Source: a candidate division WOR-3 bacterium
GTDB lineage: Bacteria; Hydrothermota; Hydrothermia; JBDRYB01
Direction of reading: 5' to 3'
NCBI GenBank assembly: GCA_039803205.1
Contig: JBDRYB010000014.1
Coordinates: forward strand, 4,939 to 48,341
DNA: 43,403 bases
The first letter of the stretch is position 1. The number at the start of each line of letters is the position of its first letter. Both the position numbers and the translations under genes were made by a program. Below are positions 4,197-43,403 of this stretch, one piece after another. The notes under the pieces are model-generated. The model made no database searches. It was not told the DNA's origin and saw nothing but the letters and a program-made list of their open reading frames with translations.

Positions 4197-4481
4197 TCAC
4201 ACTATCCAGAAATCCGGATCAGGCGTCGGTTCCGCGAGGCCCAGGTATTCGCACTGCCTCTCACAGCGAGAGCACAGTCGGTATATCCGTATGGAGTCCT
4301 TCTCAGGGTCTATGAGCCTCGCGACGCGTTCCATCATTCGTTCGGTCTGCCGCTCAGAAAGGTGGGCCTCAAAAACGCTCTTCTGCACCGCGTAGCCCCA
4401 TCTCATCAGCTCCTTGTGAACCCTGAGGCGGGTTTTATCGTCCGTGATATCGTAGCTTATCACGACAAGCATGGTCATCAC
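4197..4481 (-). CDS. cas2: CRISPR-associated endonuclease Cas2
   Basis: 94 aa; VISYDITDDKTR and VQKSVFE motifs, DSIRIYRLC; directly downstream of cas1. Confidence 0.96.
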   Translation of the reverse strand: MMTMLVVISYDITDDKTRLRVHKELMRWGYAVQKSVFEAHLSERQTERMMERVARLIDPEKDSIRIYRLCSRCERQCEYLGLAEPTPDPDFWIV

Positions 4482-5437
4482 TCCAGGAGAAAGGGCTCAT
4501 AATCAGAGTTGTCCCTTATGGCCCTGCTCAACTTCTCTGCTTGCTTTCGGATCAGGGGCCTGAAGCGCAAGGCCCTCCTCTCGTAGTGAGCCAGAAATCG
4601 TTTTCTCGTTTCTGGTGTCATGAGGAAACCGCCTTCTGGGGTTGGTCGGAAGCCTTCTTGGAGGTCCACCATTCGCCTTGAAACCAGATTCAGGACGACC
4701 ATATCAACGAAGGGATGCCTAAACTCCTCCATGAGGTCCAGGGCCAGAGCCGGCCTTCCGTGCTTTATGCCGTGATAAAAGCCTATGAAGGGGTCAAGCC
4801 CGTGGGCGGCGAGAGCTGATGTGCAATCCGAAACCAGGATCGCATATCCATACGAGAGCATGGAGTTGATCGGGTCTTTTGGGGGCCTTCTCGTCCTGCG
4901 GAACTCGTTGAGCCCAAGCAAGAGGCTCCCGAAAGCGTTGAAGTAAATGGAGGTGCTGGCTCCCTCAAGCCCCATGAGGCCGTTTAGGCTAGTCTTCATT
5001 GGTATGCGGGAGCGTAATTCCCTCATCTCCTCAAGCGCATCGGCAAAGCCGGACTCCCTTCGGTAAAGGGCCTTCTGGATCACCCTTGCCTGGTTGTATA
5101 GCTTTGCCCGGATGAACTCCTTTGCAAGACATAAGGAGCGACCGGAGTCGCTGTGTGTTCTGTATTGAGAAAGCCTCAGGGGCGCGTTCACGGAACGAAG
5201 GGGTTCAAGGGACCCCTTGAACCTGCCGTCTGTTCCCAGGAACACCGTGGCAACCCCCATCTCAAGCAGGGCGCATAGGGCCTGGGTTGATACCTGAACA
5301 TAACCCTCAATCACGACCCTCTCGGTGTTGGCTATTGGAACCTCAAGGAGAAGCTGGCTCTCCTTCTCAACAAGGAGCCTTCCGCCTTCCTTTCTGAGCA
5401 CAGAGCCTTGCTCCACGAGATAAAGAGTCCCGGCCAT
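4478..5437 (-). CDS. cas1: CRISPR-associated endonuclease Cas1 (not RT-fused)
   Basis: 319 aa; TLYLVEQG N-terminus, LMGLEG, RRPPKDPINSMLSYGY, GLDPFIGFYH, LALDLMEEFR (catalytic E/H/E present). Confidence 0.97.
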   Translation of the reverse strand: MAGTLYLVEQGSVLRKEGGRLLVEKESQLLLEVPIANTERVVIEGYVQVSTQALCALLEMGVATVFLGTDGRFKGSLEPLRSVNAPLRLSQYRTHSDSGRSLCLAKEFIRAKLYNQARVIQKALYRRESGFADALEEMRELRSRIPMKTSLNGLMGLEGASTSIYFNAFGSLLLGLNEFRRTRRPPKDPINSMLSYGYAILVSDCTSALAAHGLDPFIGFYHGIKHGRPALALDLMEEFRHPFVDMVVLNLVSRRMVDLQEGFRPTPEGGFLMTPETRKRFLAHYERRALRFRPLIRKQAEKLSRAIRDNSDYEPFLLE

Positions 5438-5538
5438 CTCCGTTTCGGGTTGGCCGCAGAGGATCCGGTAGTTCGGTTCCTGTCCCGCTCATCAAACCGC
5501 CTCTTTGCCAAAGAGCAAACCCAGGCTCGGAGCCTGGC

Positions 5539-6633
5539 TCAATCAACCCTTCTCAGCTTCACCCAGCCGAAGACGGGTTTATCCTGGTATTCTGTTGCTG
5601 ATATAACCTCCCTTGTTTTGGGCATAAAATTCTGCCAGTTATACCCTGCGAGACGCACGGTTTTCCTGTGTCTTCCGGTGCCTCGGGCCATTGAGAGGAT
5701 TGCCTCGCCGGAGGAAGTGGGGATCTGAAGCATACCGCTGTTGTAAAAAGACTCAACCAGATTGTAGAGACTTCTCTGGGAAGCTTTATTTTCTCGGTTG
5801 TCATATAGCTTACCCTTGCGGTCTTTGAGGATCTTGTTTTTGACCTCACCTAGAGATTCTTGTTCCGATGCGAGGACGGCCTGTGAGAAGAGGTTACTCG
5901 CCCCCAACAGCTCGCGCACGATGGTTTCAGGATCAGAGCCGAGACCCGTTTTTTCAAACCATTTCCCGGCAAAGCTGTGTCCGAGATGGATCTTGATCGT
6001 AAAGGTGAATTTCCTTCCCGGAGGCACGATTTCCCAGTAGTTGATCAGCTTCCTTCTGGAACCTATCCTCTGGCTTTTCACTACTTGAAGAACACCATCA
6101 TCGGGCTCTTTGGGCAGGGCATCGGACACGCCAATGGCCTTGAAGACATCGTCAAAGCCTCCGCCTTCCTCTTTCTCCCTGAAAAGATCTTCTACATCAC
6201 GGTAAGGTTTCCCTTTCTTGACCAAGGCAAAGGCCGCGGCGGTTCGGAGCGCGCCCTTGATTGAACTGCCTGGGATATATGGCCTGCTGTTGAGGTCCTT
6301 GATGAATGTGTGTATCTCTTGGCACCGCCCTGGAAGGAAGTCCTTAACCAGAACCCTCATTACCCTCTCCGCGCCTTTTTCCCCTTCAAGGTTTATTACC
6401 AGGGTTTCAACAGTTCTTTGGGAATCTGTGAGTCTCTCTCCCAAGTAGAAGATGCCTTCAGGGATCCTGTCCACGAAGTCTGGGTAATTATTCAAGATCC
6501 ACTCCAATTTCACCACATAGAGCTTGTTCTGGTGGAAGATGTATTCCATGGAGAGCAAGCTTGAACCGTCGCCTATGTGCAGAGGTGTAAGGATCTCCAG
6601 CTCCATATTAAAGACTTCATAAACCTTATCCAT
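5539..6633 (-). CDS. csm5: Type III-A RAMP subunit Csm5 (Cas7 group)
   Basis: LTPLHIGDG, PYIPGSSIKGALRTA, VSDA and C-terminal FGWV motifs; position after csm4. Confidence 0.9.
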   Translation of the reverse strand: MDKVYEVFNMELEILTPLHIGDGSSLLSMEYIFHQNKLYVVKLEWILNNYPDFVDRIPEGIFYLGERLTDSQRTVETLVINLEGEKGAERVMRVLVKDFLPGRCQEIHTFIKDLNSRPYIPGSSIKGALRTAAAFALVKKGKPYRDVEDLFREKEEGGGFDDVFKAIGVSDALPKEPDDGVLQVVKSQRIGSRRKLINYWEIVPPGRKFTFTIKIHLGHSFAGKWFEKTGLGSDPETIVRELLGASNLFSQAVLASEQESLGEVKNKILKDRKGKLYDNRENKASQRSLYNLVESFYNSGMLQIPTSSGEAILSMARGTGRHRKTVRLAGYNWQNFMPKTREVISATEYQDKPVFGWVKLRRVD

Positions 6634-7645
6634 CGTAGCTCTCCCTCTTCGTTGCCCTTACCGCGAAAGCGACTCCCTGGGCAATAACCGAAAAATCAGG
6701 CCTGTTCTCGCCCTCTGGCGTGACATCCGGGTTCTTTCCGGGGGTTGGGTTGTCCAGCCACGGCAAAACCGAGCCCTCGGCCATGTAAAGAACCGGACGC
6801 TTGAAGACATTCACACCGCCGGTCAAGCGAGAGCTATCAACCCTGCCTTTGCGGCGCTCGGTCCTGTAGGCGCTTATGGGATCTTTCCGGATCCTTTCCC
6901 ATTCATCGTGTTGGGGGTAATATAGGGAAAGCGAGACCCAGGCGTTGCCGTCTGTGAACTCCTCAAAAGGCATGTCTGTCTCCCCGAGCTCAAAGCAACC
7001 CATCCCGTATGTCGCGCCTCCTCCGAGTCCCCTGTCTCCGATGAACCTGAGAGCGGCCTTTGCCTTGTCTAGCCATTCGTCCTCGCCTCTCATAACGAGC
7101 CAGGCCCCGGCCGACAGGATGACCAGGCGCTGGTAAAACAGGTCAGTCTCACCGCCTGTTCTGGGAACCCTGACCCTGGGCCGCTCATTGAGCTTACCAG
7201 GGGAGGGATATTTCTTGAAGTCCTCATCGGTCTTCAGATCCTTCAGACACTCAAGGGAACCCTCGGATACGGCCTTCTGGAAATCATCAGCCTTGAGCCA
7301 CCTCAACTTCTTGCGCCTCTTGAAGATCTCGTATTGCGCCTCATCCTGGAAATCCCCGCCGGGAGTTTCATACATGGGTTTGGGCAGGAAGAAATAGCGC
7401 GGAGGCTCAACAACGATGTCCTCGCCTTTGTCATCTTTCTCATACGCGCACGGGAACACCGAAGAGAGAACCAGGGGAGGGGATTTCTCGTAGAGGTCAA
7501 GGAACTCGGTTTTCGGGTCCCCAATGAGGCCCAGCTCCTTCATTGCCCAGACCAGAGCGCCGAAGAGGGTGTCGGAGCGAGGAAGCTCGTTCTGAAAGAC
7601 GAGAGGCCCGGATAGGGGTTTAAGTCTGAGAGCGAGGGTTTTCAT
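6626..7645 (-). CDS. csm4: Type III-A RAMP subunit Csm4 (Cas5 group)
   Basis: RSDTLFGAL, LSSVFP, FFLPKP, GLGGGATYGMGCF, SLSLYYP and MAEGSV motifs. Confidence 0.92.
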   Translation of the reverse strand: MKTLALRLKPLSGPLVFQNELPRSDTLFGALVWAMKELGLIGDPKTEFLDLYEKSPPLVLSSVFPCAYEKDDKGEDIVVEPPRYFFLPKPMYETPGGDFQDEAQYEIFKRRKKLRWLKADDFQKAVSEGSLECLKDLKTDEDFKKYPSPGKLNERPRVRVPRTGGETDLFYQRLVILSAGAWLVMRGEDEWLDKAKAALRFIGDRGLGGGATYGMGCFELGETDMPFEEFTDGNAWVSLSLYYPQHDEWERIRKDPISAYRTERRKGRVDSSRLTGGVNVFKRPVLYMAEGSVLPWLDNPTPGKNPDVTPEGENRPDFSVIAQGVAFAVRATKRESYDG

Positions 7646-8465
7646 TTCCCACGACTTCCTTGAGCTTTTTTATCAAACAACCCTTTTCCTCTTCGGTCAT
7701 CCTTATCTTTACACCTTCCACAGGTTCCTCGCGGTCGCCCTTCAAATAGTAGTCTTTGCTCCTGAAGACCACCTTCAGGTCCTTGAATTCAACCTGGCCT
7801 GATCCTCTCGTTCCCATTCCTCCGAGATAGGAATCCTCAAGGAGGGCCATGGCCTTGAAGATATAGGGGAAGAACTCAATATCCAGTCTCTCGTTCTCGC
7901 CGGGTATCTCGTATATAGAGTAGACCATTGAGAACTCAAACTCGGTTCCCTCTGGGACGCGCTCAACTGGCCTGGGATGTTCCGCTTTGCCGCTTATCCT
8001 GTCAATGGCGTTCTCGTATTTCAACTCAGTCTCAGAGCCGAGATTCTTAAACCGCTCAAGGCTACTCTGATCCGGAAACGCATCCCTCACGATAAGCCTT
8101 GAGGGGCCATATGTCCTTTCACTTTCGGCTGGACTTCCAAAAACACGGCATATGGGACAATCTGGTTTCCCGCACCTACATCCGTATCTGGTTCGGCCAT
8201 CTTTGATCCTGGTTTTGTCTCCCTCTTTTTCTGTTTCAGGTCTTCCCCTGGTATGTAGTTTGTCTTCTATCCATTCTAGGAGCGACCGAAGCTTTCCCTT
8301 TAAGGATGAACCTGGTATATACGGAATGTCCTCCAGCGTTTTTATAACCGGGTTGTCCATGCCTCCTATCTCGTAGGCGTCCTTTGCACCGCCTATGTGG
8401 AGGGCTGTTTTGCACCGGATCCTGCCCTCTAGGATGATATTCCCTATAAACTTATACTCGTTCAT
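7620..8465 (-). CDS. csm3: Type III-A backbone RNase Csm3
   Basis: TALHIGG, IGGMDNPV (catalytic Asp), PYIPGSSLKGKLRSLLE, CPICRVFG, ENAIDR, ERVP, YLGGMGTRGSGQV. Confidence 0.96.
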   Translation of the reverse strand: MNEYKFIGNIILEGRIRCKTALHIGGAKDAYEIGGMDNPVIKTLEDIPYIPGSSLKGKLRSLLEWIEDKLHTRGRPETEKEGDKTRIKDGRTRYGCRCGKPDCPICRVFGSPAESERTYGPSRLIVRDAFPDQSSLERFKNLGSETELKYENAIDRISGKAEHPRPVERVPEGTEFEFSMVYSIYEIPGENERLDIEFFPYIFKAMALLEDSYLGGMGTRGSGQVEFKDLKVVFRSKDYYLKGDREEPVEGVKIRMTEEEKGCLIKKLKEVVGNENPRSQT

Positions 8466-8477
8466 GGTTCACCTCAC

Positions 8478-8888
8478 CTATTCTTTGGCACTATGGAAGT
8501 AGTGATAACCTACCAGACATTCAAAGAAGTCGCAGAATCCAAGAACTTCCTTCTTGAACTCCTCTGGGTTGCTCCGTAGGTTCTTAACCCTCTCCACAAA
8601 CACATCTATCAGAGGCTTGAGGGCATCAACGCCTTTAACCCCTTGCCTTTTGCTGTCATACGCGGCCTTTGCCTTCATCTTAAGAAGCTTCACCTTCGCC
8701 TGGTCTACTGTCTTCTTACCAGCCTTCAGTTCTGTAGCTATTTCCTTTATCTGGCAGAAGTATTCTCTGATCTTGGTTCTTTCTAGCTTCTTCTCGACAA
8801 GGTGTCTAGCTTCCGCCTCCGCTTGCTCCATGGCTTCCTGATAATTACCATCTTTTATAAGCTCCTTCGTGCTTTTTCCATTGCTCAT
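8478..8888 (-). CDS. csm2: Type III-A small subunit Csm2 (Cas11)
   Basis: Start re-assigned to ATG 8888 (ATGA overlap with the cas10 stop, GGAGG upstream); helical 136 aa with TKIREYF, KAKAAYDSKR, FCDFFECLVGYHYF. Confidence 0.9.
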   Translation of the reverse strand: MSNGKSTKELIKDGNYQEAMEQAEAEARHLVEKKLERTKIREYFCQIKEIATELKAGKKTVDQAKVKLLKMKAKAAYDSKRQGVKGVDALKPLIDVFVERVKNLRSNPEEFKKEVLGFCDFFECLVGYHYFHSAKE

Positions 8889-11191
8889 CTCTTTTCCTCC
8901 TTTGTTTCTTTGGTCTCCTCTTTCTTCCTTACCTTCAAAAGCGCTACATTTGCCCACAGTTGGGCGGTTTTCATCATGGTGTCCTCCATGGTTTTCTCGT
9001 TTACAGGGATTTTAACGAGCTTCTCCTGGAGCTCGCCCTTTAACTCATCAGGCACATTCCTGGCTATCTGATAAAGGACTCTTGAGGCCCAGATCAGTCT
9101 CCCTTCTTTGTGATCCTTGTGATATATGTCCAGCATGGTCTGGACAAAGCCTTTTGAGATTTGGCTATTTCCTATATAGTGCTCTAACATTTCCGCAAAA
9201 CAGAGGGCTTTCTTGACATCCTTCCAACCGAAGACCTCGTTGAAGGCGCAGAGCGCGTTCTTGCCGCCCTTTTTTGCCTTGTTCTCTGCTTCCCCGCATT
9301 CCTCAGCGGCCCTGCCTATGGGGAACTTTGGCTTGAATATGGTGTAGCCAGCCGAGAGGTGAAGGCTCTCGCTGTTTTCGGTGTATTCCCAGAACTCCTT
9401 GTTTATCTCCCTTGCCTTCTCAATGACCTCGTTCCACGCGCCCACTATGAATAGGTCATCCCCGCCAGCATATACAATGTAGAGGTTATCGTTTTCTCGC
9501 ACGAGGGTGTTGATGTATCCGGAGAAAAAAAGGTCCAACTGCCTGCTTATTGACGCGTAGACAGATGGGGTGCGGAAATCCATTGGTATGCCCTTTGCCA
9601 GCAGATAGCCCATGCCGTCCACATCCATGCGGAGGGCCGCGAGGTAGCTGGCTCCCTCGGCCTTTTTGGCCATGCTCTCAAAGGTATCTGGCACATGAGA
9701 GGCGATGAACCTGAACCCCATAGCCAGATTCCTGTTTTCTCCAATTGGCTCAAGGAAATTCATGCCCCTTATCTTGTAGAGGATTCCGGTTTCCGGTGGG
9801 CTATCGGGCGCTTCTTTGAGAAGGCACCATTTCTGACCCAAGATCTCAAAGAATGGGCCGTCAGAATTCCAGTCCTCTTCTGTCCACAGAAGGTATTTGG
9901 AATCCGGCAATAGACCCCCTATGCTCTCGTGGAGCTGGCAATCTGGGCATATAGAAACCAACCTTTCGGTTCCATCCTCCTCAACCAGCTTGCCTTCGCT
10001 TTCCTTCATGGGTGCCGCACAGACGATACATTCGTCCTCGTCCGAAGCCAGCTCTGGCCATGCCTCCATTTCCGAAAACTTGCGCTCCTTTGCCTTAGCT
10101 AGCTCCTCGTGTATGTCTTTCATCAGTTTCCCGAAATTGCTCCCCATATCGTTGATGGAGGCCTCAACCTTTACCACGGCGAGGCTGAGCTGGCCCAGGT
10201 GCCTTTCCAGAAGCCAGGCTTCGGTTTCTTTGATAGCCTCTTTCAAATTCTCGTTGATTCCGGATGTATTGGGCGCCAAAAGCAGGAATCCTCCCCCTCC
10301 AGCGAAAATGAGGTTGGGCTCAGGGAGCCTGAGCCTCCCCATTATGAACCTGGCGATGCTTTCAGTTAGAAGAGAAAGGTAAAGAGAACGCCCCCTGAGC
10401 CTCTTGGCCATGCCGGTCTGGGCATCATCCGGAGACGCAAGGTAGTAAATGAAGTCCTGTATGCCGCCAAGGTCTCCACTTATGAGCATAAAGCGTTTAT
10501 CATTATCACTCTCAGCATTTCCGGTGTGATACAGGCACCAGGCTATGGCCGCTGTCATCCTGGCGTGGTCAAAGAGGGAAATGGTTGGATAGCTTTTGAA
10601 AACAGCCGAAGGAACGCACCAAGTATATTTGTAGAGAAGGTGATAGAGGGAAAGGAAAAAGGCGTCAAAGGAGTCTTTGGGAAGGTTCTTAGCTTCATCG
10701 GCAAAACCCTTCCAGATTTCCTCATAGCTGCCTTTATCCTCACTTGGTTTTATGGGGAATATGTTATCGGCGTATGTGCCGAGGGGAGCAAGGGGCAACA
10801 TGGGAAGCGAGTGTATGTCCTGGCTACACGATTCCTTTCCCAGGGCAGAGAGAGAGGAGCGCAGGCGAAACTCGGATATTTTCTCATCGGAAAAGAAACG
10901 CCTTTCCTGTCTTTCGCTTGCTGAGATGCGATCAGCCTTTTTAACGATCCTCGCTATGAATTCAGAAGGTTCTCCTTCATGATGTTCACGCACGATCACT
11001 CTAACCCTCTCTTTGTCCTCTTTGTCCAGAAAAGTCAAAAGGTCAGTGAGAGCCTTGACAACCTTCTCGCTCAGTTCTTGATGAAGCTCTCTTTCACCTT
11101 CATCCAAAGCCCTCTGCGCAAACTTCCCTATGTCATGCAGTAGCGCTCCAAGGAGGAGCACTTGCTCATTCTTTTCAAGGTTCAAAGCCAC
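8885..11191 (-). CDS. cas10: Cas10/Csm1 with intact HD nuclease and GGDD cyclase motifs
   Basis: 768 aa; GALLHDIGKF, ADRISASER, ISLFDH, GDLGGIQDFIY, LRGRSLYL, CxxC...CxxC, RMDVDGMG, YAGGDDLFIVGAW. Confidence 0.97.
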   Translation of the reverse strand: MALNLEKNEQVLLLGALLHDIGKFAQRALDEGERELHQELSEKVVKALTDLLTFLDKEDKERVRVIVREHHEGEPSEFIARIVKKADRISASERQERRFFSDEKISEFRLRSSLSALGKESCSQDIHSLPMLPLAPLGTYADNIFPIKPSEDKGSYEEIWKGFADEAKNLPKDSFDAFFLSLYHLLYKYTWCVPSAVFKSYPTISLFDHARMTAAIAWCLYHTGNAESDNDKRFMLISGDLGGIQDFIYYLASPDDAQTGMAKRLRGRSLYLSLLTESIARFIMGRLRLPEPNLIFAGGGGFLLLAPNTSGINENLKEAIKETEAWLLERHLGQLSLAVVKVEASINDMGSNFGKLMKDIHEELAKAKERKFSEMEAWPELASDEDECIVCAAPMKESEGKLVEEDGTERLVSICPDCQLHESIGGLLPDSKYLLWTEEDWNSDGPFFEILGQKWCLLKEAPDSPPETGILYKIRGMNFLEPIGENRNLAMGFRFIASHVPDTFESMAKKAEGASYLAALRMDVDGMGYLLAKGIPMDFRTPSVYASISRQLDLFFSGYINTLVRENDNLYIVYAGGDDLFIVGAWNEVIEKAREINKEFWEYTENSESLHLSAGYTIFKPKFPIGRAAEECGEAENKAKKGGKNALCAFNEVFGWKDVKKALCFAEMLEHYIGNSQISKGFVQTMLDIYHKDHKEGRLIWASRVLYQIARNVPDELKGELQEKLVKIPVNEKTMEDTMMKTAQLWANVALLKVRKKEETKETKEEKR

Positions 11192-11193
11192 GG

Positions 11194-12093
11194 TTAAACC
11201 TCCTCTATCCTGTATGTTCCAAAGCCAAAGCTGGTCCCCTTACCCACATGAATTATCTCCCCAGCGATCAGAAGGTCCCAGAGCTCGCGGCTGCCGCCCG
11301 ACAGCACCACATCGCCCATAAAGCCTTGGAGCCTGAGCCTCTTCCTCTGGCGTCCAGAGAAGCTTTCGTGCTGAACCGGGTGGGTCTCGTCTCTTAATAC
11401 ATTCAAACCCTCAAGGAGTTCTTCTGTTGGAGGAAGTCCGAGATTCACGCGAGGTTCCTCGTGGATTCTGATCAAAAGGGAAAGCCTTCTAATGAGAGAG
11501 GAGATAACGCCCTCCGGAGAAAAGCGTTTCATTAAACTCCCATTATGAACGATCCTGGTGGGAGTCTTGAAAGAGATAGCCCACTTGCCCTTTGGGCGCA
11601 TTCTTGCCGCGATGTAATCACCGATGCTCATAATAATGGGCTTGGCTGTGATCACACCGTCTTTATAGACCTGAAACCCACCGGAAAAAACCACGGGCGA
11701 AAAACGGAATCGCTCTCTTCCGAGCCCATTTTGTCCCATCCTTTCAACAGCAAGAAGAAGATTGTTGAAAAACTGGGTCCCCTTTCCCAAGAGGATAATG
11801 CGAAAAGACTCCCCATCCAGGGGCGGTTCTATCACATATGGGTGAGGATAGTAGGGATACTTGCGTGTTCCGGGTTTCTCCGGGTTTGGTGGCGTTTCAA
11901 ACAAGTAGAAATAAGCGCACTGCTCCAATAGTAGACAGGAATCGCATTTGATTCTTGGCCTCAAGCAGCTTGTCTTCTTCAAGGAGTGCCCAAGTGCACC
12001 CCTTATTGTGGAGCCCCTTAATTGACCGATATATTCAGCCGGAATTCCGGCAAGTTTTATTTCTGTATTTACGAATCTGAGGCATGCGTCCAT
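11194..12093 (-). CDS. cas6: crRNA processing endoribonuclease Cas6
   Basis: GSTIRGALG, Cys cluster CLRPRIKCDSCLLLEQCAY, PHPYVIEPP, FKTPTRI, C-terminal HVGKGTSFGFG glycine-rich loop. Confidence 0.93.
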   Translation of the reverse strand: MDACLRFVNTEIKLAGIPAEYIGQLRGSTIRGALGHSLKKTSCLRPRIKCDSCLLLEQCAYFYLFETPPNPEKPGTRKYPYYPHPYVIEPPLDGESFRIILLGKGTQFFNNLLLAVERMGQNGLGRERFRFSPVVFSGGFQVYKDGVITAKPIIMSIGDYIAARMRPKGKWAISFKTPTRIVHNGSLMKRFSPEGVISSLIRRLSLLIRIHEEPRVNLGLPPTEELLEGLNVLRDETHPVQHESFSGRQRKRLRLQGFMGDVVLSGGSRELWDLLIAGEIIHVGKGTSFGFGTYRIEEV

Positions 12094-14611: not shown

Positions 14612-14693
14612 TAATAAAAAGACCGGGGAGCTTAAAAGCCCCACGGCCCTAATGGAGGTATTATCGCTTCGCTAGCCTTCGATCGCGAAGCCC
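14612..14693 (-). ncRNA. Putative stand-alone ~80-nt small RNA with an exposed anti-SD segment
   Basis: Own TTGAAA-N17-TATAAT promoter, 5' hairpin GCUUCGC/GCGAAGC, linker GAUAAUACCUCCAUUA, then an intrinsic terminator; no ORF. Confidence 0.65.
14613..14649 (-). terminator. Rho-independent terminator
   Basis: GGGCCG-U-GGGGCU-UUUA-AGCUCC-C-CGGUCU followed by UUUUAUU. Confidence 0.8.
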
Positions 14694-36250: not shown

Positions 36251-36298
36251 CCCAATGGCCGGTTTCAAGTTGATTAGAAAGGGATATCTGCCTCACCC

Positions 36299-36330
36299 TG
36301 TTAAATCTTTGTTAAATTATTTCCTATAAT
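36299..36330 (+). promoter_or_regulatory. Activator-dependent promoter: TGTTAAAT direct repeats (11-bp period) and a TATAAT -10 box
   Basis: TGTTAAAT at 36299 and 36310, TATAAT 36325-36330, no canonical -35; identical copy at 42042-42073. Confidence 0.7.
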
Positions 36331-36356
36331 ATGGGCGTGAACAAACGGAGGTTTTT

Positions 36357-37919
36357 ATGATGAGTTTCTTCATACTCATGGGTGTTTCTGCGGTCATCCC
36401 TCAGGGATGGCCCATGTTCAGGTATGACCAAGCACGGACCGGGTTCTGCCCTGCAGTCTCTGACTTCTCCGCTAAACCCCGTTCTAAGGTAGAGTGGATG
36501 GTTTGGGACGAAGGTGACCTCATACTCGCTTCCCCTGTTGGCGCTGATTTCAATGACGATGGCTGGCATGATGTTGTGACTAGCTCCTACACCGCTGGGT
36601 TCTTTTATCCGCTTGTTGATGTATACCGGGGGGATAATGGCTTGAGGATCTGGTCCTCAGGAAGGTTTGCCTCCGAAGGATGCTACCGTAGTAGCCCCGC
36701 GCTCATGGATGTCAATGGAGACAACAAACCGGAAGTCTTCGTTTCACACACGGGGGCTGGCGCTCTTTATGCTTTGAGTGGAGTGGATGGCTCCAAACTC
36801 TGGGAGGTTCCTATCGGCCCAGACCAATACTCATCCCCCCTCGTTAGGGAAGATGGTCCCGAAGGCAGGGTCTACGCATGCAACGACGCAGGGGTTCTGT
36901 ATTGCTTGAATCCGATCACGGGAGCTGTGCTCTGGGCACACGGCGCTAGCGCTGGGGGAACATGCTATTCTTCCCCTTCTGCCGGCGATGTGAACAGCGA
37001 CGGCCAGGACGAGATAGTCTATTCCTGCGGGACAAACCTTTATGTGGTTTCTGAAAGCGGTGTAGAGCTCTGGAATGTCTCTGTTGGAGAGGATTATCTT
37101 AGCACAGTGGCCCTCTCGGACAAAGACGGGGATGGAGACCTAGAGATGTGGGTTTACTGCGGTAAATCAGGTTTTCTGAAGGTCTATGAATACGGAAATC
37201 CCTCCCCTGTAATAAGCACTTTCGTGGGTTCAATCTATGGCCTTGGTGGTTTGGATTGGCCCCCTCCTCCAGCGGTCGCTGATGTAAATAATGATGGGAC
37301 ACCGGACGCGGTCCTACACCACTTCAACGGCGTAATCATGGTTAATGGGGCATCGGGTTCAGTGGCCTGGAACACACCCGCGCAGGACCTGTATGGCCCG
37401 GTTATCATGGCCAACCTTGACCTTGATCCGTATCTTGAGATCGTAGTGACAGGAATGCCACCAGACTGGGGAACCCGTTGCAAGGTTGAGATGTATCAGG
37501 AGAATGGTTCCCTGGCCTGGCAATGGTGGTCAGAAGAAAACGCTGATTATCATGACGAGGTGGAGGGCGAGGCCATCCTCATCAATGTTGATGCTGATCC
37601 CGAATACGAGATAGCCGCTGTTGATTACTCATGCTGGGCCGTCGTCCTGGATAACAGCCCTCTGCAAACCGAAGAGGACGCGCATGACAGGCAGGTTATC
37701 TTCACGACCAGAGGGCATGATCTTTACCTTTGTCTTCCGAAAGAGGCCCGCGTCTCCCTTTCTGTTTATGACGGCTCGGGTCGCCTGACAGAGAACCTTT
37801 ACGATGGTGTCCTTTCAGCAGGGGATCACGCCTTCAACCTGAGCACGCAGACCAAAGGTGTTTATCTGGTTGTTCTCAACTGTGAGGGCCAGGTAAGAAC
37901 CGTAAAAGTGATAAGATGA
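36357..37919 (+). CDS. Secreted PQQ-like/FG-GAP (VCBS) beta-propeller protein with T9SS-like C-terminal domain
   Basis: WPMFRYDQARTG, repeated SSP.x.GD(V/L)NxDG..EIV motifs, C-terminal SVYDGSGRL...GVYLVVL...KVIR; SD GGAGGT. Confidence 0.85.
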   Translation: MMSFFILMGVSAVIPQGWPMFRYDQARTGFCPAVSDFSAKPRSKVEWMVWDEGDLILASPVGADFNDDGWHDVVTSSYTAGFFYPLVDVYRGDNGLRIWSSGRFASEGCYRSSPALMDVNGDNKPEVFVSHTGAGALYALSGVDGSKLWEVPIGPDQYSSPLVREDGPEGRVYACNDAGVLYCLNPITGAVLWAHGASAGGTCYSSPSAGDVNSDGQDEIVYSCGTNLYVVSESGVELWNVSVGEDYLSTVALSDKDGDGDLEMWVYCGKSGFLKVYEYGNPSPVISTFVGSIYGLGGLDWPPPPAVADVNNDGTPDAVLHHFNGVIMVNGASGSVAWNTPAQDLYGPVIMANLDLDPYLEIVVTGMPPDWGTRCKVEMYQENGSLAWQWWSEENADYHDEVEGEAILINVDADPEYEIAAVDYSCWAVVLDNSPLQTEEDAHDRQVIFTTRGHDLYLCLPKEARVSLSVYDGSGRLTENLYDGVLSAGDHAFNLSTQTKGVYLVVLNCEGQVRTVKVIR

Positions 37920-37926
37920 GAGCTTT

Positions 37927-37976
37927 GGGCCGGCCGGCAATATCACATCGCACCTCCATCAGAAACCGGCCGGCCC
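37927..37976 (+). repeat. Long-loop GC hairpin, copy 1 (GGGCCGGCCGG / CCGGCCGGCCC, 28-nt loop)
   Basis: Perfect 11-bp stem; loop CAATATCACATCGCACCTCCATCAGAAA; no U tract. Confidence 0.85.
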
Positions 37977-38014
37977 GTGTTATCCGAAAACAAAACCCCA
38001 AGGAGGTATGATAT

Positions 38015-39610
38015 ATGCCTATGAGGTTCTTTTCATCGTTGTTGTCTTTTGGTGTTGGTGTTTCGGCCCTCCTTGCCCAGACATGGAGCACATACCACGG
38101 TGATAACTACAATACCGGCTATGCGCCGGGCATGGGGGCCATGAGTATGCCCACTCTCAGATGGGCATTCAACGGAGGCGGTAGAATATGGATAAACAGC
38201 CCTGTTGTGGGCGAGCTGGACGGCGACGCGAACCTGGAGGTGGTCTTCGGAACATACGACAATGGCACATATTATGCCCTACACGCGGAGGATGGATCTC
38301 TGTATTGGTCTTATCATCTTGCCACCACCCAGAACTTCGGAAGCGCTGTCATTGGCGATGTCGATGGAGACGGCTGGAATGAGGTCATATGTCCCTTTGA
38401 ATCCTTTGATGATGACACCAAGAACCAGATCGTTTGTCTAGAACACGACGGGACACTGCAGTGGAGCTTCAGCGACTTTTGGAGCGGCTGGTTTGAAGCC
38501 CCGTGCAAGCTCGCTGATGTAGATGGCGATGGAAAACTGGAGGTGGTAACCACATCCTACCTTGGTATGGTCTACGCGCTGAATGCGGAGAACGGCTCTC
38601 GGTGTTGGAATGTAGCCAAAGGGACAAACTGCTTCTCCAGCCCTGCTATAACCCCTGTCAGTATAAACGGAGGAAGCACCCCGGATGTCATAGTTACCAT
38701 CTATACCCCCCCCGACGGTGGTGGCCTTTACGCTCTTGAGGGTTCTAACGGGGCCGAGATATGGTCAAACCCTTCAGCTGGCTACGGTTATTATACCGCT
38801 CCGGTCATCGCTAACATAACTCCGGACCCAAGCCTTGAGGTAATAGCCTGCAACACAGAAGCAGGGGCCGTCTATTGTGTGAACATAGAGGATGGCAGTC
38901 TGAACTGGCGCTACCCTGCGGCTGGCAGTATAGGCGATATCGGCAACACCCCAGCGGTTGGTGACCTCAACGGGGACGGGGATAACGAGATCGTCTTCGC
39001 CCGTGATTACTGGCCAACAGGGACGGTGTTCGCGTTGAATCCTGATGGAACGCTTTTCTGGAGCACGAACCTGCCCAGGATAACCTATTCCTCCGCGGCC
39101 ATATGCGATATAGATGGTGATGGTAAACCAGAGGTGCTCATAGGGACAATCAGCGATACCAGCCTCTATTGTTTGAACGGCGAGGACGGGACAATACTGT
39201 GGAGCTATCCAACCAGAGGCGCTGTGGTCAGCTCGCCCGTGCCGGTGGATGTTGAACATGACGGCGCACTTGGCGTGCTAATAGGCTCCACTGATTATAA
39301 CTTGTATCTGTTGGATGTCAAACCCGTTTACGGCGGTTCACTGGAAGATGAAACAGTCCGTGGCCAGAGGCTTACGGCCACCCCAAGCGCCGGGGGAATC
39401 ACGGTGAGGTTTTCCCTTGCAGACCCCTCACCAGTTTCCCTGGAGCTCTATGACATATCCGGCGCTTTGGTTTCGCGCGTGAACCTTGGAGAGATCGGAA
39501 CCGGAGAACACACCAGGTTCATCCCCACCAGAAAGGCTGGGATTTTCTTCCTAGTGCTTAATACTAGAAGCGGTTCATCGAGCACCACATGCTTGATTCC
39601 AGAGCGTTGA
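38015..39610 (+). CDS. Secreted PQQ-like/FG-GAP beta-propeller protein with T9SS-like C-terminal domain
   Basis: Signal peptide; WSTYHGDNYNTG; multiple (G/A)D(V/L)DGDG..E(V/I)(V/I) repeats; LYDISGALV...GIFFLVL. Confidence 0.85.
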   Translation: MPMRFFSSLLSFGVGVSALLAQTWSTYHGDNYNTGYAPGMGAMSMPTLRWAFNGGGRIWINSPVVGELDGDANLEVVFGTYDNGTYYALHAEDGSLYWSYHLATTQNFGSAVIGDVDGDGWNEVICPFESFDDDTKNQIVCLEHDGTLQWSFSDFWSGWFEAPCKLADVDGDGKLEVVTTSYLGMVYALNAENGSRCWNVAKGTNCFSSPAITPVSINGGSTPDVIVTIYTPPDGGGLYALEGSNGAEIWSNPSAGYGYYTAPVIANITPDPSLEVIACNTEAGAVYCVNIEDGSLNWRYPAAGSIGDIGNTPAVGDLNGDGDNEIVFARDYWPTGTVFALNPDGTLFWSTNLPRITYSSAAICDIDGDGKPEVLIGTISDTSLYCLNGEDGTILWSYPTRGAVVSSPVPVDVEHDGALGVLIGSTDYNLYLLDVKPVYGGSLEDETVRGQRLTATPSAGGITVRFSLADPSPVSLELYDISGALVSRVNLGEIGTGEHTRFIPTRKAGIFFLVLNTRSGSSSTTCLIPER

Positions 39611-39645
39611 TTCTCAAAGGTGATCGACCCATCATGATAGGTTTC

Positions 39646-39705
39646 AGGGCCGGCCGGAAAGTATCTGTACCTCCCGTTTCCCACTCCGGCCGGCCCTTGT
39701 TTTTT
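39646..39705 (+). terminator. Long-loop GC hairpin, copy 2, with U tract
   Basis: 13-bp stem AGGGCCGGCCGGA / TCCGGCCGGCCCT, loop containing GTACCTCCCGTTT, followed by TGTTTTTT. Confidence 0.75.
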
Positions 39706-39744
39706 CTTTGAAAACAAAAACGCGAAGGGGGTCTTAGCATTAAC

Positions 39745-41049
39745 ATGATTAGCATAGCCCTTGTGCTGATGATGGGTCAGTGGACCTTGATGCCGGTAGA
39801 CACAACGAATTACATAGGCTGGTTCCCTTCCCTGGCCCTGGATGTGAACAACAACCCACATATATCTTATGGCAATGAAAGCAGTGGCGACCTTATGTAT
39901 GCCCGGTGGGATGGCTCAGCTTGGCAAATTGAGGTTGTTGACACTGCTGGCTGGGTTGGCGAGTGCACCTCAATAGCCCTTGATTCTCAGGGCAGGCCAC
40001 ATATCTCCTACTTTGATAGGTCCAATTATAACCTCAAATACGCCCGGTGGGATGGCTCAGCCTGGCAGATAGATGTGGTTGACGCTACCGCCGACTGGGT
40101 TGGCGCCCCTACCTCAATAGCCCTTGATTCTCAGGACAGGCCACATATCTCCTACTATGATTGGTCCAACTCTAACCTCAAATACGCCCGGTGGGATGGT
40201 TCAGCCTGGCAGATAGATGTGGTTGACGCCGCCGGCGATGTAGGCGACTATACCTCAATAGCCCTTGATTCTCAGGACAGGCCACATATCTCCTACTTTG
40301 ATAGGTCCAATTATAACCTCAAATACGCCCGGTGGGATGGCTCAGCCTGGCAGATAGATGTGGTTGACGCCGCCGGCGATGTAGGCGACTATACCTCAAT
40401 AGCCCTTGATTCTCAGGGCAGGCCACATATCTCCTATCATGACGCTGACAACGAGATCCTCAAATACGCCCGGTGGGATGGCTCAGCCTGGCAGATAGAG
40501 GTTGTTGACGCTACTGCCGGTTGGGTTGGCGTCCATACCTCCGTGGCCCTTGATTCTCATGACAGTCCACACATATCCTACCATGATTGGTCCAACTACA
40601 ACCTCAAATACGCCCGGTGGGATGGTTCAGCCTGGCAGATAGAGGTTGTTGAAGGAGGTGGGCTTGGAGCAGGTTTTTTTGGCACCGACCGCTCTCTGAG
40701 AATAGGCACGGATGACTGTCCGAGGATAGCTTATCATGTGGAGGATCCGGAAGACCTTTACTACGCGCACATGGGCTGTCCTCCCCTTGCTGGGGATATA
40801 TCCGAAGAGAAGGGGAACAGGAATATTGAGTTCCGGCCCCTGGGTAAGAAGGTTTACCTGTTCCTGCCGGGCCAGACCCGGATCTCTCTATCGCTCTACG
40901 ATGTTTCGGGTAGTCTCGTGCAGAACATCTATGACGGCATCCTTTCCGCGGGGAGTCATACCTTTATCTTTGAGAATGAGAGGATGGGGGTCTACTTTGC
41001 GGTGCTCAGACACCCGGATGGGATGAAAACCATAAAGGTAATAAGATGA
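39745..41049 (+). CDS. Secreted tandem-repeat beta-propeller protein with T9SS-like C-terminal domain
   Basis: 47-48 aa repeats TSIALDSQ.RPHISY.D..N.NLKYARWDGSAWQI.VVD; C-terminal SLYDVSGSLV...GVYFAVL...KVIR. Confidence 0.85.
   Translation: MISIALVLMMGQWTLMPVDTTNYIGWFPSLALDVNNNPHISYGNESSGDLMYARWDGSAWQIEVVDTAGWVGECTSIALDSQGRPHISYFDRSNYNLKYARWDGSAWQIDVVDATADWVGAPTSIALDSQDRPHISYYDWSNSNLKYARWDGSAWQIDVVDAAGDVGDYTSIALDSQDRPHISYFDRSNYNLKYARWDGSAWQIDVVDAAGDVGDYTSIALDSQGRPHISYHDADNEILKYARWDGSAWQIEVVDATAGWVGVHTSVALDSHDSPHISYHDWSNYNLKYARWDGSAWQIEVVEGGGLGAGFFGTDRSLRIGTDDCPRIAYHVEDPEDLYYAHMGCPPLAGDISEEKGNRNIEFRPLGKKVYLFLPGQTRISLSLYDVSGSLVQNIYDGILSAGSHTFIFENERMGVYFAVLRHPDGMKTIKVIR
39901..40650 (+). repeat. 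Intragenic tandem repeat, six near-identical units of 141-144 bp
   Basis: GCCCGGTGGGATGG recurs at 39901, 40042, 40186, 40327, 40468 and 40612. Confidence 0.92.
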
Positions 41050-41076
41050 AAACAAAACCACTAAGGAGATTTTATC

Positions 41077-41949
41077 ATGACAGGATGTATCTTGACTATG
41101 TGCATGTTCAACCTGTGGGTCAACTGCATAGCGTTGAAGGACGGATATCCCGGAAACAGTTCTGCTGTCTCTGCCTCAAGGGTGTTTTCCGGCGATTACC
41201 AGCCCTTCTATCTGCCTGAGACTGAGACCCTCAAGGTTGATGATGGTGTGATGGCCGCCGAGGTTTCTATGGGTGGTCCGCAGGCATACTTTGTAATCCA
41301 GCTACCAGTGACCAAAGCGGGATGGATAACTGCTCTGCTTTACTATCCTACCGACGCTGGTGGGGATACCGCTATTGATTTGATTCCTCTGGATTGGTGT
41401 GTTTGGGATGATGACGGAGCAGATGGTTATCCTGGCACACTCTTGGCTTCCGGGACCAAAGCGGACTTAGCCTACCTTACCTGGAACTCTGTGGATGTGA
41501 GCTCCTATAACATCAACATAGACCCAGGTTATGTATATGTTGGATGGAAAGGATCCCCGCAAGAGGATTCATCTTATTGGAACGGGCTTGATGCTCAGCG
41601 AGACGGCCACCTATACTACTATGACGGTTCGTCGTGGATGCTTGCTGACCAGTGGTGGCTTTGGGGCGACCTCATGATAAGGGCCGTGCTTCAGACAACG
41701 GATGTAGCCGAAGGTGAGGCGTCAAAACCCATATCCTTCAGAGTATATCCAAACCCTTCTGATGGACTCGTGTCTTTCGTTCTATCGGGCGTTGATAAGG
41801 GTATGCTGTCCATCTATGACCCTTCTGGAAGGAGAGTGATTGAGACCGAGTTTTTCTCCACCAAGAGCGTGATCCTTGACCCCGGCTTATACTTCTACCG
41901 GGCATCTGCTGGTAACCAGACCTTTTTGGGAAAACTGATGATAAGGTAA
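41077..41949 (+). CDS. Secreted protein with T9SS type A-like C-terminal sorting domain
   Basis: C-terminus FRVYPNPS...SIYDPSGRRV...PGLYFYR...GKLMIR; DLMIRA motif before the CTD. Confidence 0.8.
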   Translation: MTGCILTMCMFNLWVNCIALKDGYPGNSSAVSASRVFSGDYQPFYLPETETLKVDDGVMAAEVSMGGPQAYFVIQLPVTKAGWITALLYYPTDAGGDTAIDLIPLDWCVWDDDGADGYPGTLLASGTKADLAYLTWNSVDVSSYNINIDPGYVYVGWKGSPQEDSSYWNGLDAQRDGHLYYYDGSSWMLADQWWLWGDLMIRAVLQTTDVAEGEASKPISFRVYPNPSDGLVSFVLSGVDKGMLSIYDPSGRRVIETEFFSTKSVILDPGLYFYRASAGNQTFLGKLMIR

Positions 41950-41960
41950 CCAAATACCAG

Positions 41961-42017
41961 GGGCCGGCCGGTAATATACATCGCATCTCCATCAGAAACC
42001 GGCCGGCCCGCTTTTTT
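41961..42017 (+). terminator. Long-loop GC hairpin, copy 3, with U tract
   Basis: 11-bp stem identical to copy 1; 27-nt loop TAATATACATCGCATCTCCATCAGAAA; followed by GCTTTTTT. Confidence 0.75.
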
Positions 42018-42041
42018 GTGAGGATTTTGCGGGCCTCACTC

Positions 42042-42073
42042 TGTTAAATCTTTGTTAAATTATTTCCTATAAT
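42042..42073 (+). promoter_or_regulatory. Duplicate of the 36299-36330 promoter (TGTTAAAT x2 + TATAAT)
   Basis: 42033-42196 is nearly identical to 36290-36453 (offset 5743). Confidence 0.75.
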
Positions 42074-42099
42074 ATGGGCGTGAACAAACGGAGGTTTTT

Positions 42100-43403
42100 A
42101 TGATGAGTTTCTTCATACTTATGGGTGTTTCTGCGGTCATCCCTGAGGGATGGCCCATGTTCAGGTATGACCAAGCACGGACCGGGTTCTGCCCTGCGAC
42201 CGCGGATTTCAGTTCCCGGCCCCAGGCAAAGGCTGAGTGGATGGTCTGGAGCGAGGAGGACAACATATACGCTTCGCCGGTGGGGGCTGACTTTGGGGGC
42301 GATGGTTGGCACGATGTGCTCATTGGCTCTTATGGCAAGACGGCGAGCTACCCTCTTGCTGATGTTTACTGCGGGAACAATGGCGCTCTGATCTGGGCAT
42401 CCAGCACATATACCTCGCAAGGATGTTATCTTGGCGGCCCCGCGCTGATGGATGTAACCGGGGACAACAGGCCCGAGGTCTTTGTTCCAAATATACAGGC
42501 CGGCGCTCTTTATGCCCTGAATGGTGCGGATGGCTCCAAGCTCTGGGAGGTTCCTATCGGCACTGACCGATATTCCTCTCCCCTTGTAAGGGAAAATGGG
42601 CCAGAGGGCAGGGTCTATGTCTGCAATGATGACGGGACCCTGTTTTGCCTGAACGCGACCACAGGGGCCACCATGTGGACATATACCCCTGATTTGGGTG
42701 GTACATGCTACTCGTCCCCCTCGGCTGGGGATGTGAACAGCGATGGCCAGGACGAAATAGTCTATTCCTGCGGCTCGGAGATACATGTGGTCTCACTCGG
42801 TGGTGTGGAGCTGTGGAGTGTTTCGGCTGGGGACGCCTCTCTAAGCACCGTGGCCCTTTCGGACAGGAACGGGGACGGAACCAGGGAAATGTGGCTCTAC
42901 TGCAATCAAACCGGTCGCATCAAGGTCTTTGAATACGGCAATCCAGCCCCGGTCGTGAATGTTTTTATTGGATCAGCGAGCCTGGTTTGCCCGCCTCCCC
43001 CCGCGGTCGCTGATGTGAATGCTGATGGTGTCCCGGACGCGGTCGCGCATCATAGCGACGGACTTACCATGGTTGATGGGGCAAACGGCGCCCTGGCCTG
43101 GAATGTATCCGCGCAGGATCTGTATGGCCCGGTCATCATAGCCAACCTGGACCCTGACCCTTACCTTGAGATAGTGGCCACGGGGAGACCTCCGATACTC
43201 TACCGTTGCAAGGTTGAGATGTATCAGGAAAATGGCTCTCTGGCCTGGCAATGGTGGACTCCGAGCCCTCTCGCCAATGACGAGGTGGAGGGCGAGGCCA
43301 TCCTCATCAATGTTGATGCTGATCCCGAATACGAGATAGCCGCTGTTGATTACTCATGCTGGGCCGTCGTCCTGGATAACAGCCCTCTGCAAACCGAAGA
43401 GGA
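42100..43403 (+). CDS. Paralogue of the 36357-37919 FG-GAP beta-propeller protein, truncated by the window end
   Basis: Open frame from ATG 42100 (MMSFFILMGVSAVIPEGWPMFRYDQARTG...) to the end; absent from the ORF track because it has no stop. Confidence 0.88.
   Translation, partial: MMSFFILMGVSAVIPEGWPMFRYDQARTGFCPATADFSSRPQAKAEWMVWSEEDNIYASPVGADFGGDGWHDVLIGSYGKTASYPLADVYCGNNGALIWASSTYTSQGCYLGGPALMDVTGDNRPEVFVPNIQAGALYALNGADGSKLWEVPIGTDRYSSPLVRENGPEGRVYVCNDDGTLFCLNATTGATMWTYTPDLGGTCYSSPSAGDVNSDGQDEIVYSCGSEIHVVSLGGVELWSVSAGDASLSTVALSDRNGDGTREMWLYCNQTGRIKVFEYGNPAPVVNVFIGSASLVCPPPPAVADVNADGVPDAVAHHSDGLTMVDGANGALAWNVSAQDLYGPVIIANLDPDPYLEIVATGRPPILYRCKVEMYQENGSLAWQWWTPSPLANDEVEGEAILINVDADPEYEIAAVDYSCWAVVLDNSPLQTEE
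43277..43403 (+). repeat. 127-bp exact copy of 37552-37678
   Basis: ATGACGAGGTGGAG...AAACCGAAGAGGA is identical in both paralogues; the window ends exactly here. Confidence 0.9.

Follow-up and report, generated by a model that had tools for sequence, protein, structure and literature searches.

What is the role of a long-loop hairpin placed just behind the stop codons of genes for secreted proteins? This question is raised by a 43,403-nucleotide (nt) stretch of DNA from a candidate division WOR-3 bacterium (the window; positions 4,939 to 48,341 of contig JBDRYB010000014.1, assembly GCA_039803205.1), in which three such hairpins follow genes whose products carry a C-terminal sorting domain of the type IX secretion system (T9SS; hereafter cargo genes). 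The original prediction, made from the letters of the window, held that each loop is complementary to the Shine-Dalgarno sequence (SD) of the gene it follows, and proposed either 5'-3' fold-back silencing of the full-length mRNA or small RNAs (sRNAs) derived from the 3' ends. Here, we find that the three hairpins belong to a family of 35 copies in the source genome (G000; 2.3 Mb, 96% complete). From sequence comparison, the best explanation, to which we give a probability of about 0.55, is that they would act as ribosome-gated terminators or barriers, with a relay open reading frame (ORF) through the hairpin in gene arrays and a loop that is a generic anti-SD. The three copies of the window, whose array and terminal types are defined below, are:

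37927..37976, + strand: hairpin 1, array type, 7 nt past the stop codon, weak U-tail; core CACCTCC at 37951-37957; 46.7 bits (a training sequence of the covariance model)
39646..39697, + strand: hairpin 2, 36 nt past the stop codon of gene 2, strong U-tail; core TACCTCC at 39668-39674
41961..42017, + strand: hairpin 3, terminal type, 11 nt past a TAA stop, with six T behind it; the core is a variant, CATCTCC, at 41984-41990

A hairpin family behind T9SS cargo genes

We first consider the structure itself. As had been predicted, the three elements share a stem, with GGGCCGGCCGG at 37927, 39647 and 41961 and CCGGCCGGCCC at 37966, 39686 and 41999, and their loops are long, 28, 28 and 27 nt on an 11-bp stem, where ordinary terminator loops in this genome span 3-9 nt. 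Folding z-scores are -3.4, -4.3 and -3.6 for hairpins 1, 2 and 3, respectively, hairpin 3 being a near-copy of hairpin 1. The genome-wide collection that had been suggested as a check returned 35 copies in G000 with covarying stems, far beyond chance: 32 lie behind sorting-domain genes, two behind domain remnants or contig-cut ends, and the remaining one 64 nt behind an unrelated gene of 140 amino acids (aa). The loop of this sole copy behind a non-cargo gene (G000:C4:122190-122235, - strand) pairs with the ribosome-binding site (RBS) of that gene over ~12 bp, interrupted by a single bulge; no better gene-specific case was seen. In the 35-copy alignment, 12 of 13 stem pairs change on both sides, and 88.5% of the paired cells can pair compared to 72.8% after shuffling and at most 55% when the strands are slid, although these counts are inflated by kinship among the copies. 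Read on the sense strand, the inner nine pairs (columns 11-20) contain 15 G-U against 4 non-pairs.

The loops, mostly about 19-32 nt long and not listed by a standard terminator scan, contain a core, CACCTCC, kept in 33-35 of the 35 copies at each position. The flanking G(-1), C(+7) and G(+8) are kept in 27-28 copies, and no position outside -1 to +8 in more than 26. This core is that of the genome's 16S rRNA tail, GAUCACCUCCUUUU. As collection of the copies allowed about one core mismatch at most, its conservation is partly circular; this does not apply to an unbiased look at all genes with the C-terminal domain, in which 30 of the 34 strong hairpins behind them (score at least 29, loop at least 12 nt) carry the motif. 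A scan in which loop content played no part also yielded many long-loop GC hairpins with one common loop motif. The core is predicted to be more than 90% unpaired at both 37 and 65 °C and lies 25-35 nt from the stop codon in 28/35 copies; no covariation was found for an apical mini-stem around these 7 nt. The iterated profile built from four C-termini of the window detects a T9SS-type sorting domain in 241 of the 2039 called genes (~12%), and the hosts of the hairpin are mostly cargo genes of 470-570 aa (27/121 vs 5/119). Overall, these data support the view of the original prediction that a selected RNA element family with an anti-SD loop stands behind surface-protein paralogues. It corresponds to no Rfam family, the Rfam covariance models, including those of the cuckoo and ar14 families, giving 0 matches in the whole window.

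We then searched for the family elsewhere. The covariance model gave 18 matches in G001 and 9 in G002, two genomes of the same genus, some of them reverse-strand echoes. In other members of the class, single weak matches were observed in 3/38 genomes, two being short-loop terminators and one atypical on inspection, and in the phylum, for which 121 genomes were covered, scoring matches are limited to G000, G002 and a single weak one of 37 nt, the best 130 or 44 candidates per genome having been scored. A pattern scan of metagenomes returned 86 stretches, of which those at 38 bits or more are further members; none of the 25 examined is identical to a G000 copy. From the same kind of scan on genome contigs, chance matches make up those listed, with a best score of 31 bits. 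This best among the 80 matches listed, from Sphingomonas azotifigens (L177:2191-2246, - strand), is a GC hairpin followed by a T-tail, with CACCTCCCGT in its long loop, and is possibly a convergent element. As far as these genomes and metagenomes reach, the family is restricted to one genus.

Two further features of the family were noted. Four G001 loci (L034, L070, L071 and L072) carry double hairpins ~80-120 nt apart, one pair standing around a remnant of a sorting-domain end, and they look like arrays having lost a gene by recombination. In three array copies (G000:C1 minus strand at 202365, L077 and L125), a similar sequence with CTTTGACAC stands in place of the start of the next gene; it may be the terminus of a mobile element that has inserted at this start codon.

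Stop codons, spacers and a proposed relay mini-ORF

The two features that bear most on mechanism had escaped the original prediction, namely a hairpin placed where a terminating ribosome can reach it and the relay mini-ORF of the arrays. The hairpins stand unusually close to the stop codon. The median stop-to-stem distance is 8 nt for 31 copies, four atypical ones being left out, and 23 nt for 61 ordinary terminators of the genome (p = 3e-11). The copies fall into two subtypes. In G000, 16 array copies have another cargo gene 82-104 nt downstream, and the stop codon lies within ATGA or GTGA in 15 of them; the stop is TAA in all 15 terminal copies. Overall, terminal copies mostly end on TAA or TAG and have longer U-tails, with a mean of 6.3 T in the 9-nt tail compared to 4.75 for array copies (p = 0.002). 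Hairpin 3 is an example, with its TAA, six T and a TATAAT ahead of the next gene. A GC-rich stem and a U-tract are thus present as in intrinsic terminators, and the loop is longer than the usual 3-8 nt.

The array of the window, in which the putative relay described below is found, is composed as follows:

36325..36330, + strand: TATAAT, candidate -10 box of the array (consensus match only)
36347..36352, + strand: SD of gene 1, GGAGGT
36357..37919, + strand: gene 1, FG-GAP/PQQ-type beta-propeller with a T9SS type A sorting domain, stop within ATGA; TIGR04183 at 23.9 bits (cut-off 23)
37916..38011, + strand: putative relay mini-ORF of 31 codons, from the ATGA overlap through hairpin 1, ending 3 nt before the ATG of gene 2
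38002..38008, + strand: SD of gene 2, GGAGGTA
38015..39610, + strand: gene 2, beta-propeller with a T9SS-type C-terminal domain; TIGR04183 at 22.5 bits, just below the cut-off
39634..39711, + strand: mini-ORF of 25 codons through hairpin 2, in the frame of the TTG at 39607, stopping 33 nt short of gene 3
39745..41049, + strand: gene 3, BNR-repeat propeller with a T9SS-type C-terminal domain (profile matches; TIGR04183 below the cut-off)
41065..41070, + strand: SD of gene 4, GGAGAT
41077..41949, + strand: gene 4, 290 aa, T9SS type A sorting domain, stop TAA; TIGR04183 at 40.1 bits
42068..42095, + strand: TATAAT (42068) and SD (42090) of gene 5, a duplicate of the upstream region of gene 1

Gene 3 has no hairpin at its 3' side, its spacer to gene 4 being 27 nt, and the mini-ORF through hairpin 2 can be read as a decayed relay.

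In array copies overall, the stop codon overlaps an ATG or GTG in 28/30 cases, and in 25 of the 28 copies with an NTGA stop, the mini-ORF opened by this overlap runs through the hairpin to a stop no more than 7 nt from the next start. For G000 alone, this is observed for 13 of 15 NTGA array copies, 11 with an exact ATGA overlap, one of the other two being fused in frame and one running on; shuffled spacers of the same 15 copies give a mean of 1.8 and a maximum of 8 in 5000, and the genome background, from other co-oriented gene pairs, is 11/66. On the loci from G002 and the metagenomes, ATGA is found in 13/14 array copies, and 12 of these 13 mini-ORFs end within 7 nt of the next start, the three G002 ends having been read from printed context. 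The frame is maintained with spacers of 73, 82, 91, 94, 97, 103, 112 and 118 nt; at five of the eight off-frame lengths (93, 95, 96, 99 and 104 nt), a stop codon lies 1-4 nt before the start instead. The peptides, and the frames in which the loop is read, differ among copies, with no conserved peptide, nor is there a conserved in-frame extension that would point to stop-codon read-through. At least one copy (C1+364066) precedes a gene with no recognisable SD, yet shows the exact overlap. Overlaps or very short gaps are reportedly required for reinitiation (PMC10666635), and the mini-ORF would supply exactly that. From these sequence patterns, we consider the relay well supported.

How might such a hairpin work? 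Terminal copies would be intrinsic terminators that a ribosome at the stop codon could weaken. In tests with tR2 in Escherichia coli, a terminator placed 5 nt past the stop codon dropped from ~90% efficiency to below 10%, and the effect was abolished when translation was removed (PMC4824070). In arrays, the terminating ribosome would restart at the overlapping AUG, melt the hairpin by translating through it, and restart at the next gene; such a relay would tie the output of gene n+1 to the full translation of gene n. In the folded state of the hairpin, its loop could act as a generic anti-SD seed, most plausibly on cargo mRNAs, which is the weakest step of the scheme. A wider proposal, which we regard as rather unlikely, makes the ends of propeller mRNAs both ribosome-sensing switches and pooled anti-SD seeds, i.e. 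a secretome-wide control layer. A gene translated to its end would have its hairpin melted and its ribosome relayed to the next gene; upon incomplete translation, the hairpin would close, transcription would stop, and an anti-SD seed would be displayed. If true, a 35-member sRNA pool would damp initiation at the strong SDs of ~240 T9SS cargo genes, a feedback on secretion load that needs neither Hfq nor separate sRNA genes.

Several observations weigh against the ribosome-gated scheme. Start sites come from our own gene calling and manual choice, and in the window the relay is intact at hairpin 1 only. ATGA is also kept in seven copies without an intact gene close downstream. Minimum-energy folding prefers the antisense strand in 35/57 copies, which reads as G-rich antisense loops pairing with the C's of the stem, the count of pair types favouring the sense strand. 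The ATGA/TAA split could in part be a product of module swapping, the stop codon being in physical linkage with the spacer; a tree built from the C-terminal domains (58 rows) holds four well-supported independent array/terminal contrasts, of which on average 2.6 go the same way and 0 the opposite way, which is not significant, and a 240-row tree is mostly unresolved. Regarding the loop, anti-SD 8-mers caged between pairing segments lose most of their effect in Bacillus subtilis (PMC12697547). Lastly, the SDs of cargo genes favour GAGGTG-Y (36:19, vs 12:52 in other genes; 22:15 when counted by protein family), and the ratio of GGAGGTGY to GGAGGTGA before ATG is 55:51, 40:30 and 34:30 in the three element-bearing genomes; however, it is as high or higher in relatives without the element (113:59, 82:44 and 85:55). 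The bias is therefore no evidence for co-adaptation of cargo SDs to the loop, and we discarded it as such.

Other features of the window may be noted here. The start and upstream region of gene 5 (42041-42165) duplicate those of gene 1 (36298-36420), the two proteins being 73% identical over 440 aa; as the duplicate includes the TATAAT, gene 5 likely has its own promoter. Within gene 1, related strains (runs X3 and X4) differ at ~35 clustered positions in 36778-36959 and are nearly identical over the rest, which suggests a swapped propeller segment. The sequencing runs in which this DNA is best represented are hot-spring metagenomes from a single study, a possible source of the genome. Gene 3 contains near-identical internal repeats of 141 nt (39890-40640), with ATCTCC at 40003, 40147, 40288 and 40429. 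A perfect TTGACA-16-TATAAT lies antisense inside gene 2 (39294-39321, - strand), and type III-A-like CRISPR genes (cas6, cas10, RAMPs and cas1) occupy 4478-12093 on the - strand.

What the loop may pair with

In the window, the loop/SD matches reported by the original prediction are real: ACCTCC at 37952, TACCTCC at 39668 and ATCTCC at 41985 face GGAGGT at 36347 and 38002 and GGAGAT at 41065, and loop 2 and GGAGGTATGATAT do form the 13-bp duplex, which includes one bulge and G-U pairs (-17.2 kcal/mol). They are not, however, specific to the gene that the hairpin follows. Loop 1 pairs equally well with the RBS of the next gene (-14.0 kcal/mol) and with its own (-13.0). For loop 3, the RBSs of genes 1, 2 and 5 (-10.4 to -12.7) are better partners than its own (-8.8). 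We thus compared the pairing of each loop with its own RBS to that with permuted partners. No signal was obtained for 29 genes (p = 0.33), for 50 pairs (p = 0.18 for energy, 0.12 for core length) or for 18 independent pairs (p = 0.72), the 32 pairs of G000 alone being borderline (p = 0.078 and 0.047, respectively). At least six Watson-Crick pairs with the core are possible for 27 of the 50 own SDs and at most five for the other 23, nearly all of which face a perfect core. Loop/SD covariation does not hold either: CACCTCC is unchanged in 18 of the 20 genes with a GGAGA, GGAGT, GGAGC or GGAGGC SD, and none of the seven GGAGT genes is compensated. The ATCTCC/GGAGAT match of hairpin 3, which had been put forward as a compensatory change, does exist but as a single case, one of the two GGAGAT genes, and no variant at the SD of gene 4 or at loop 3 is listed on DNA contigs of related strains. 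Given the preference of loop 3 for other genes and the absent covariation, the core is best taken as a generic anti-SD and the compensatory change as a single event. The prediction had named as counter-evidence loops that vary independently of SDs and loop mutations that leave translation unaffected; the former half is what the copies display.

Could the loop nevertheless fold back on the SD of its own mRNA, ~1.5 kb upstream, silencing or destabilising it as in icaR or hok? In B. subtilis, distal anti-SDs do repress, and at distances above 500 nt the repression is still 44% (PMC12697547); icaR provides a natural example (PMC3868564), and both RNase III and RNase Y are present in G000. Strong own-RBS pairs exist at C16-40831 and C38+6051 (9 bp each), at hairpin 2 and in ATCTCC/GGAGAT of the window; besides the borderline G000 value, a generic anti-SD would need no covariation where the SD is GGAGGT. 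The permutation tests and the uncompensated SDs given above argue against it, as does the finding that the SDs of element genes match no better than those of 208 cargo genes without the element (p = 0.76). At 65 °C, should the host grow at such a temperature, AUCUCC/GGAGAU amounts to just -2.8 kcal/mol. Gene-specific fold-back silencing is thus not borne out, and we hold it to be improbable. Pairing with downstream RBSs, which had also been proposed, fares similarly: the match of loop 1 with the next RBS stands, and no covariation was detected (n = 24, p = 0.75; n = 35, p = 0.31). An H-type pseudoknot of the loop with the next SD, blocking fresh initiation until the relay ribosome melts it and so enforcing strict coupling, is feasible in geometry (a 25-30-nt A-rich spacer), fits the relay, and has good single cases in C5+48613 (8 bp) and C16-41786 (7 bp). 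But the perfect core is about as frequent in terminal G000 copies, which lack a nearby SD downstream (13/15), as in array copies (14/16), so this pseudoknot cannot be the sole role of the loop, and we rate it as quite improbable.

With terminator and relay as in the ribosome-gated scheme, the loop could instead be a binding site for a protein, as a C-rich motif or an anti-SD mimic, which is unlikely in our view. The core and its flanks are indeed invariant whatever the neighbouring SD, and the accessibility of the core and its distance from the stop codon, 25-35 nt in most copies, would suit such a site; yet the seven most conserved positions coincide exactly with the 16S tail, and neither Hfq nor KhpB was found in the 96%-complete genome. 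The whole unit might also be a by-product whose loop and mini-ORF are inherited without selection: a terminator copied along with the end of the C-terminal domain in gene duplication, or the trace of a MIRU-like insertion at ATGA. The arrays consist of paralogues and do recombine, as the G001 orphan double hairpins with their domain remnant illustrate, hairpins 1 and 3 are near copies, and the tree test is not significant. Against this, three genomes and several metagenome contigs show an unchanged core next to varying stems, loop flanks and spacer lengths, and at 13 spacer lengths the frame is either preserved or compensated. Also, none of the 236 close non-cargo ATGA junctions holds a copy, unlike what is expected from a mobile repeat targeting ATGA. 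A by-product is therefore the explanation that we find most improbable.

There remains pairing in trans, which taken on its own is doubtful though possible; we rank it ahead of a protein-binding site, of fold-back on the own SD and of the downstream pseudoknot, all four being proposals. GGAGGT occurs in the SDs of 104/240 cargo genes compared to 172/1775 other genes, also when the upstream gap is at least 30 nt; cargo genes, holding most long SDs, would thus be the natural targets of a generic anti-SD loop. In Listeria, the terminator loop of LhrC binds an SD region without Hfq (PMC4132741). In G000, Rho, RNase Y and RNase III are present, RNase E/G, like the two proteins above, was not found, and RNase J gave no match above the cut-off. 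The search for a fixed RNA partner returned, as best sense-strand complements, scattered coding sites and one 5' untranslated region (UTR); for 16S rRNA, pairing reaches at best -18 kcal/mol in one region, 23S rRNA, tmRNA, signal recognition particle RNA and RNase P RNA not having been checked individually. This short 5' UTR (G000:C7 ~18188, + strand) carries a perfect loop complement, ACGGGAGGTGCG, just ahead of the SD of a 664-aa gene, TonB-dependent receptor-like by eye; its match is tied best in the genome, and it is a candidate trans target. Another loop complement, CGGGAGGTGC, lies directly past the stop codon of a cargo gene (G000:C1, minus-strand position 22204), before an ordinary terminator.

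The original prediction also placed the same ACCUCC core in a candidate sRNA of the window:

14612..14692, - strand: candidate sRNA of ~80 nt preceded by TATAAT; it has a 5' hairpin, AUAAUACCUCCAUU in single-stranded form and a terminator; folding z-score -2.5, single copy

The motif is present (14654-14659, - strand), but in a single-stranded linker between two hairpins. This sRNA does not match the covariance model, and we rejected it as a family member; no homologue was found in G001-G003, three relatives.

Comparison with known systems

In the literature searched, mostly without subscription papers and without supplements, we found no description of this hairpin element, and nothing on WOR-3 with type IX secretion or a structured RNA motif; anti-Shine-Dalgarno combined with T9SS led just to a ribosome structure. 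Its components have known counterparts, each alike in part. Of the RNAs with an anti-SD-like loop, the Cuckoo RNAs of Alphaproteobacteria (CcsR/RSs0680, NfeR1 and ar14) are also multi-copy, with compensating stems and a conserved loop, but they are confirmed sRNAs made of 2-4 adjacent hairpins with CCUCCUCCC (PMC4615179). Here, single hairpins with GCACCUCCCG are fused to mRNA 3' ends and match no Rfam model; doubles are confined to the four G001 copies, one enclosing a domain remnant, and we thus rejected Cuckoo membership. In Listeria LhrC, a C-rich motif in a terminator loop likewise binds the SD region of a surface-protein mRNA with no need for Hfq, the RNAs being five near-identical sRNAs under LisRK control with UCCC motifs (PMC4132741), whereas the present family is known from DNA alone. 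The 3'-UTR/5'-UTR pair of Staphylococcus aureus icaR resembles it by a 3' anti-SD within an SD-bearing mRNA and by the presence of RNase III (PMC3868564). There it is a matched pair in one gene; here the anti-SD is common to the whole family, is enclosed in a loop and does not follow the SD of its own gene, and an assignment to icaR/hok-type matched fold-back was rejected on the 50 pairs and the 18/20 uncompensated SDs.

The closest parallels of the relay are found in integrons and MIRUs, as here an ORF leads from the upstream stop codon to the downstream start and its peptide sequence, which differs among copies, would be irrelevant. In integron attC sites, a stable hairpin between tandem genes hinders downstream translation, and an internal short ORF relieves the block by termination-reinitiation (Jacquier et al., via the review PMC8876359); the invariant anti-SD loop, the single class of secreted proteins and the terminator-like terminal copies distinguish the present family. 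No integron context was noticed around the hairpins, no search aimed at an integrase or attC core sites having been made. MIRUs are repeated intergenic units whose small ORF is joined to the next gene by a -4 overlap (Supply et al. 1997, via PMC12548453). They appear mobile and insert at start codons, whereas here only 3' sites of cargo genes are used, half of them terminal with no relay, and the loop is a conserved anti-SD; with 34 of the 35 copies behind cargo ends and none at close non-cargo ATGA junctions, a MIRU-like mobile repeat was rejected.

The terminal copies resemble near-stop intrinsic terminators (PMC4824070), sharing their GC stem and U-tail; there the ribosome represses termination at ~5 nt, and here the loops are ~20-28 nt long and conserved, the ordinary terminators of the genome lying ~23 nt from the stop. 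Although its reach is limited to one genus, the element would, from its sequence features, be a new combination of known parts, i.e. a near-stop terminator, a relay mini-ORF and an anti-SD loop, within a single 50-nt unit. Its dozens of natural variants form a ready-made set for testing if translation is the sole way in which ribosomes pass structured gaps between genes, and if a 3' anti-SD caged in a loop can act at a distance; the element is also a natural counterpart of the bicistronic-design cassettes.

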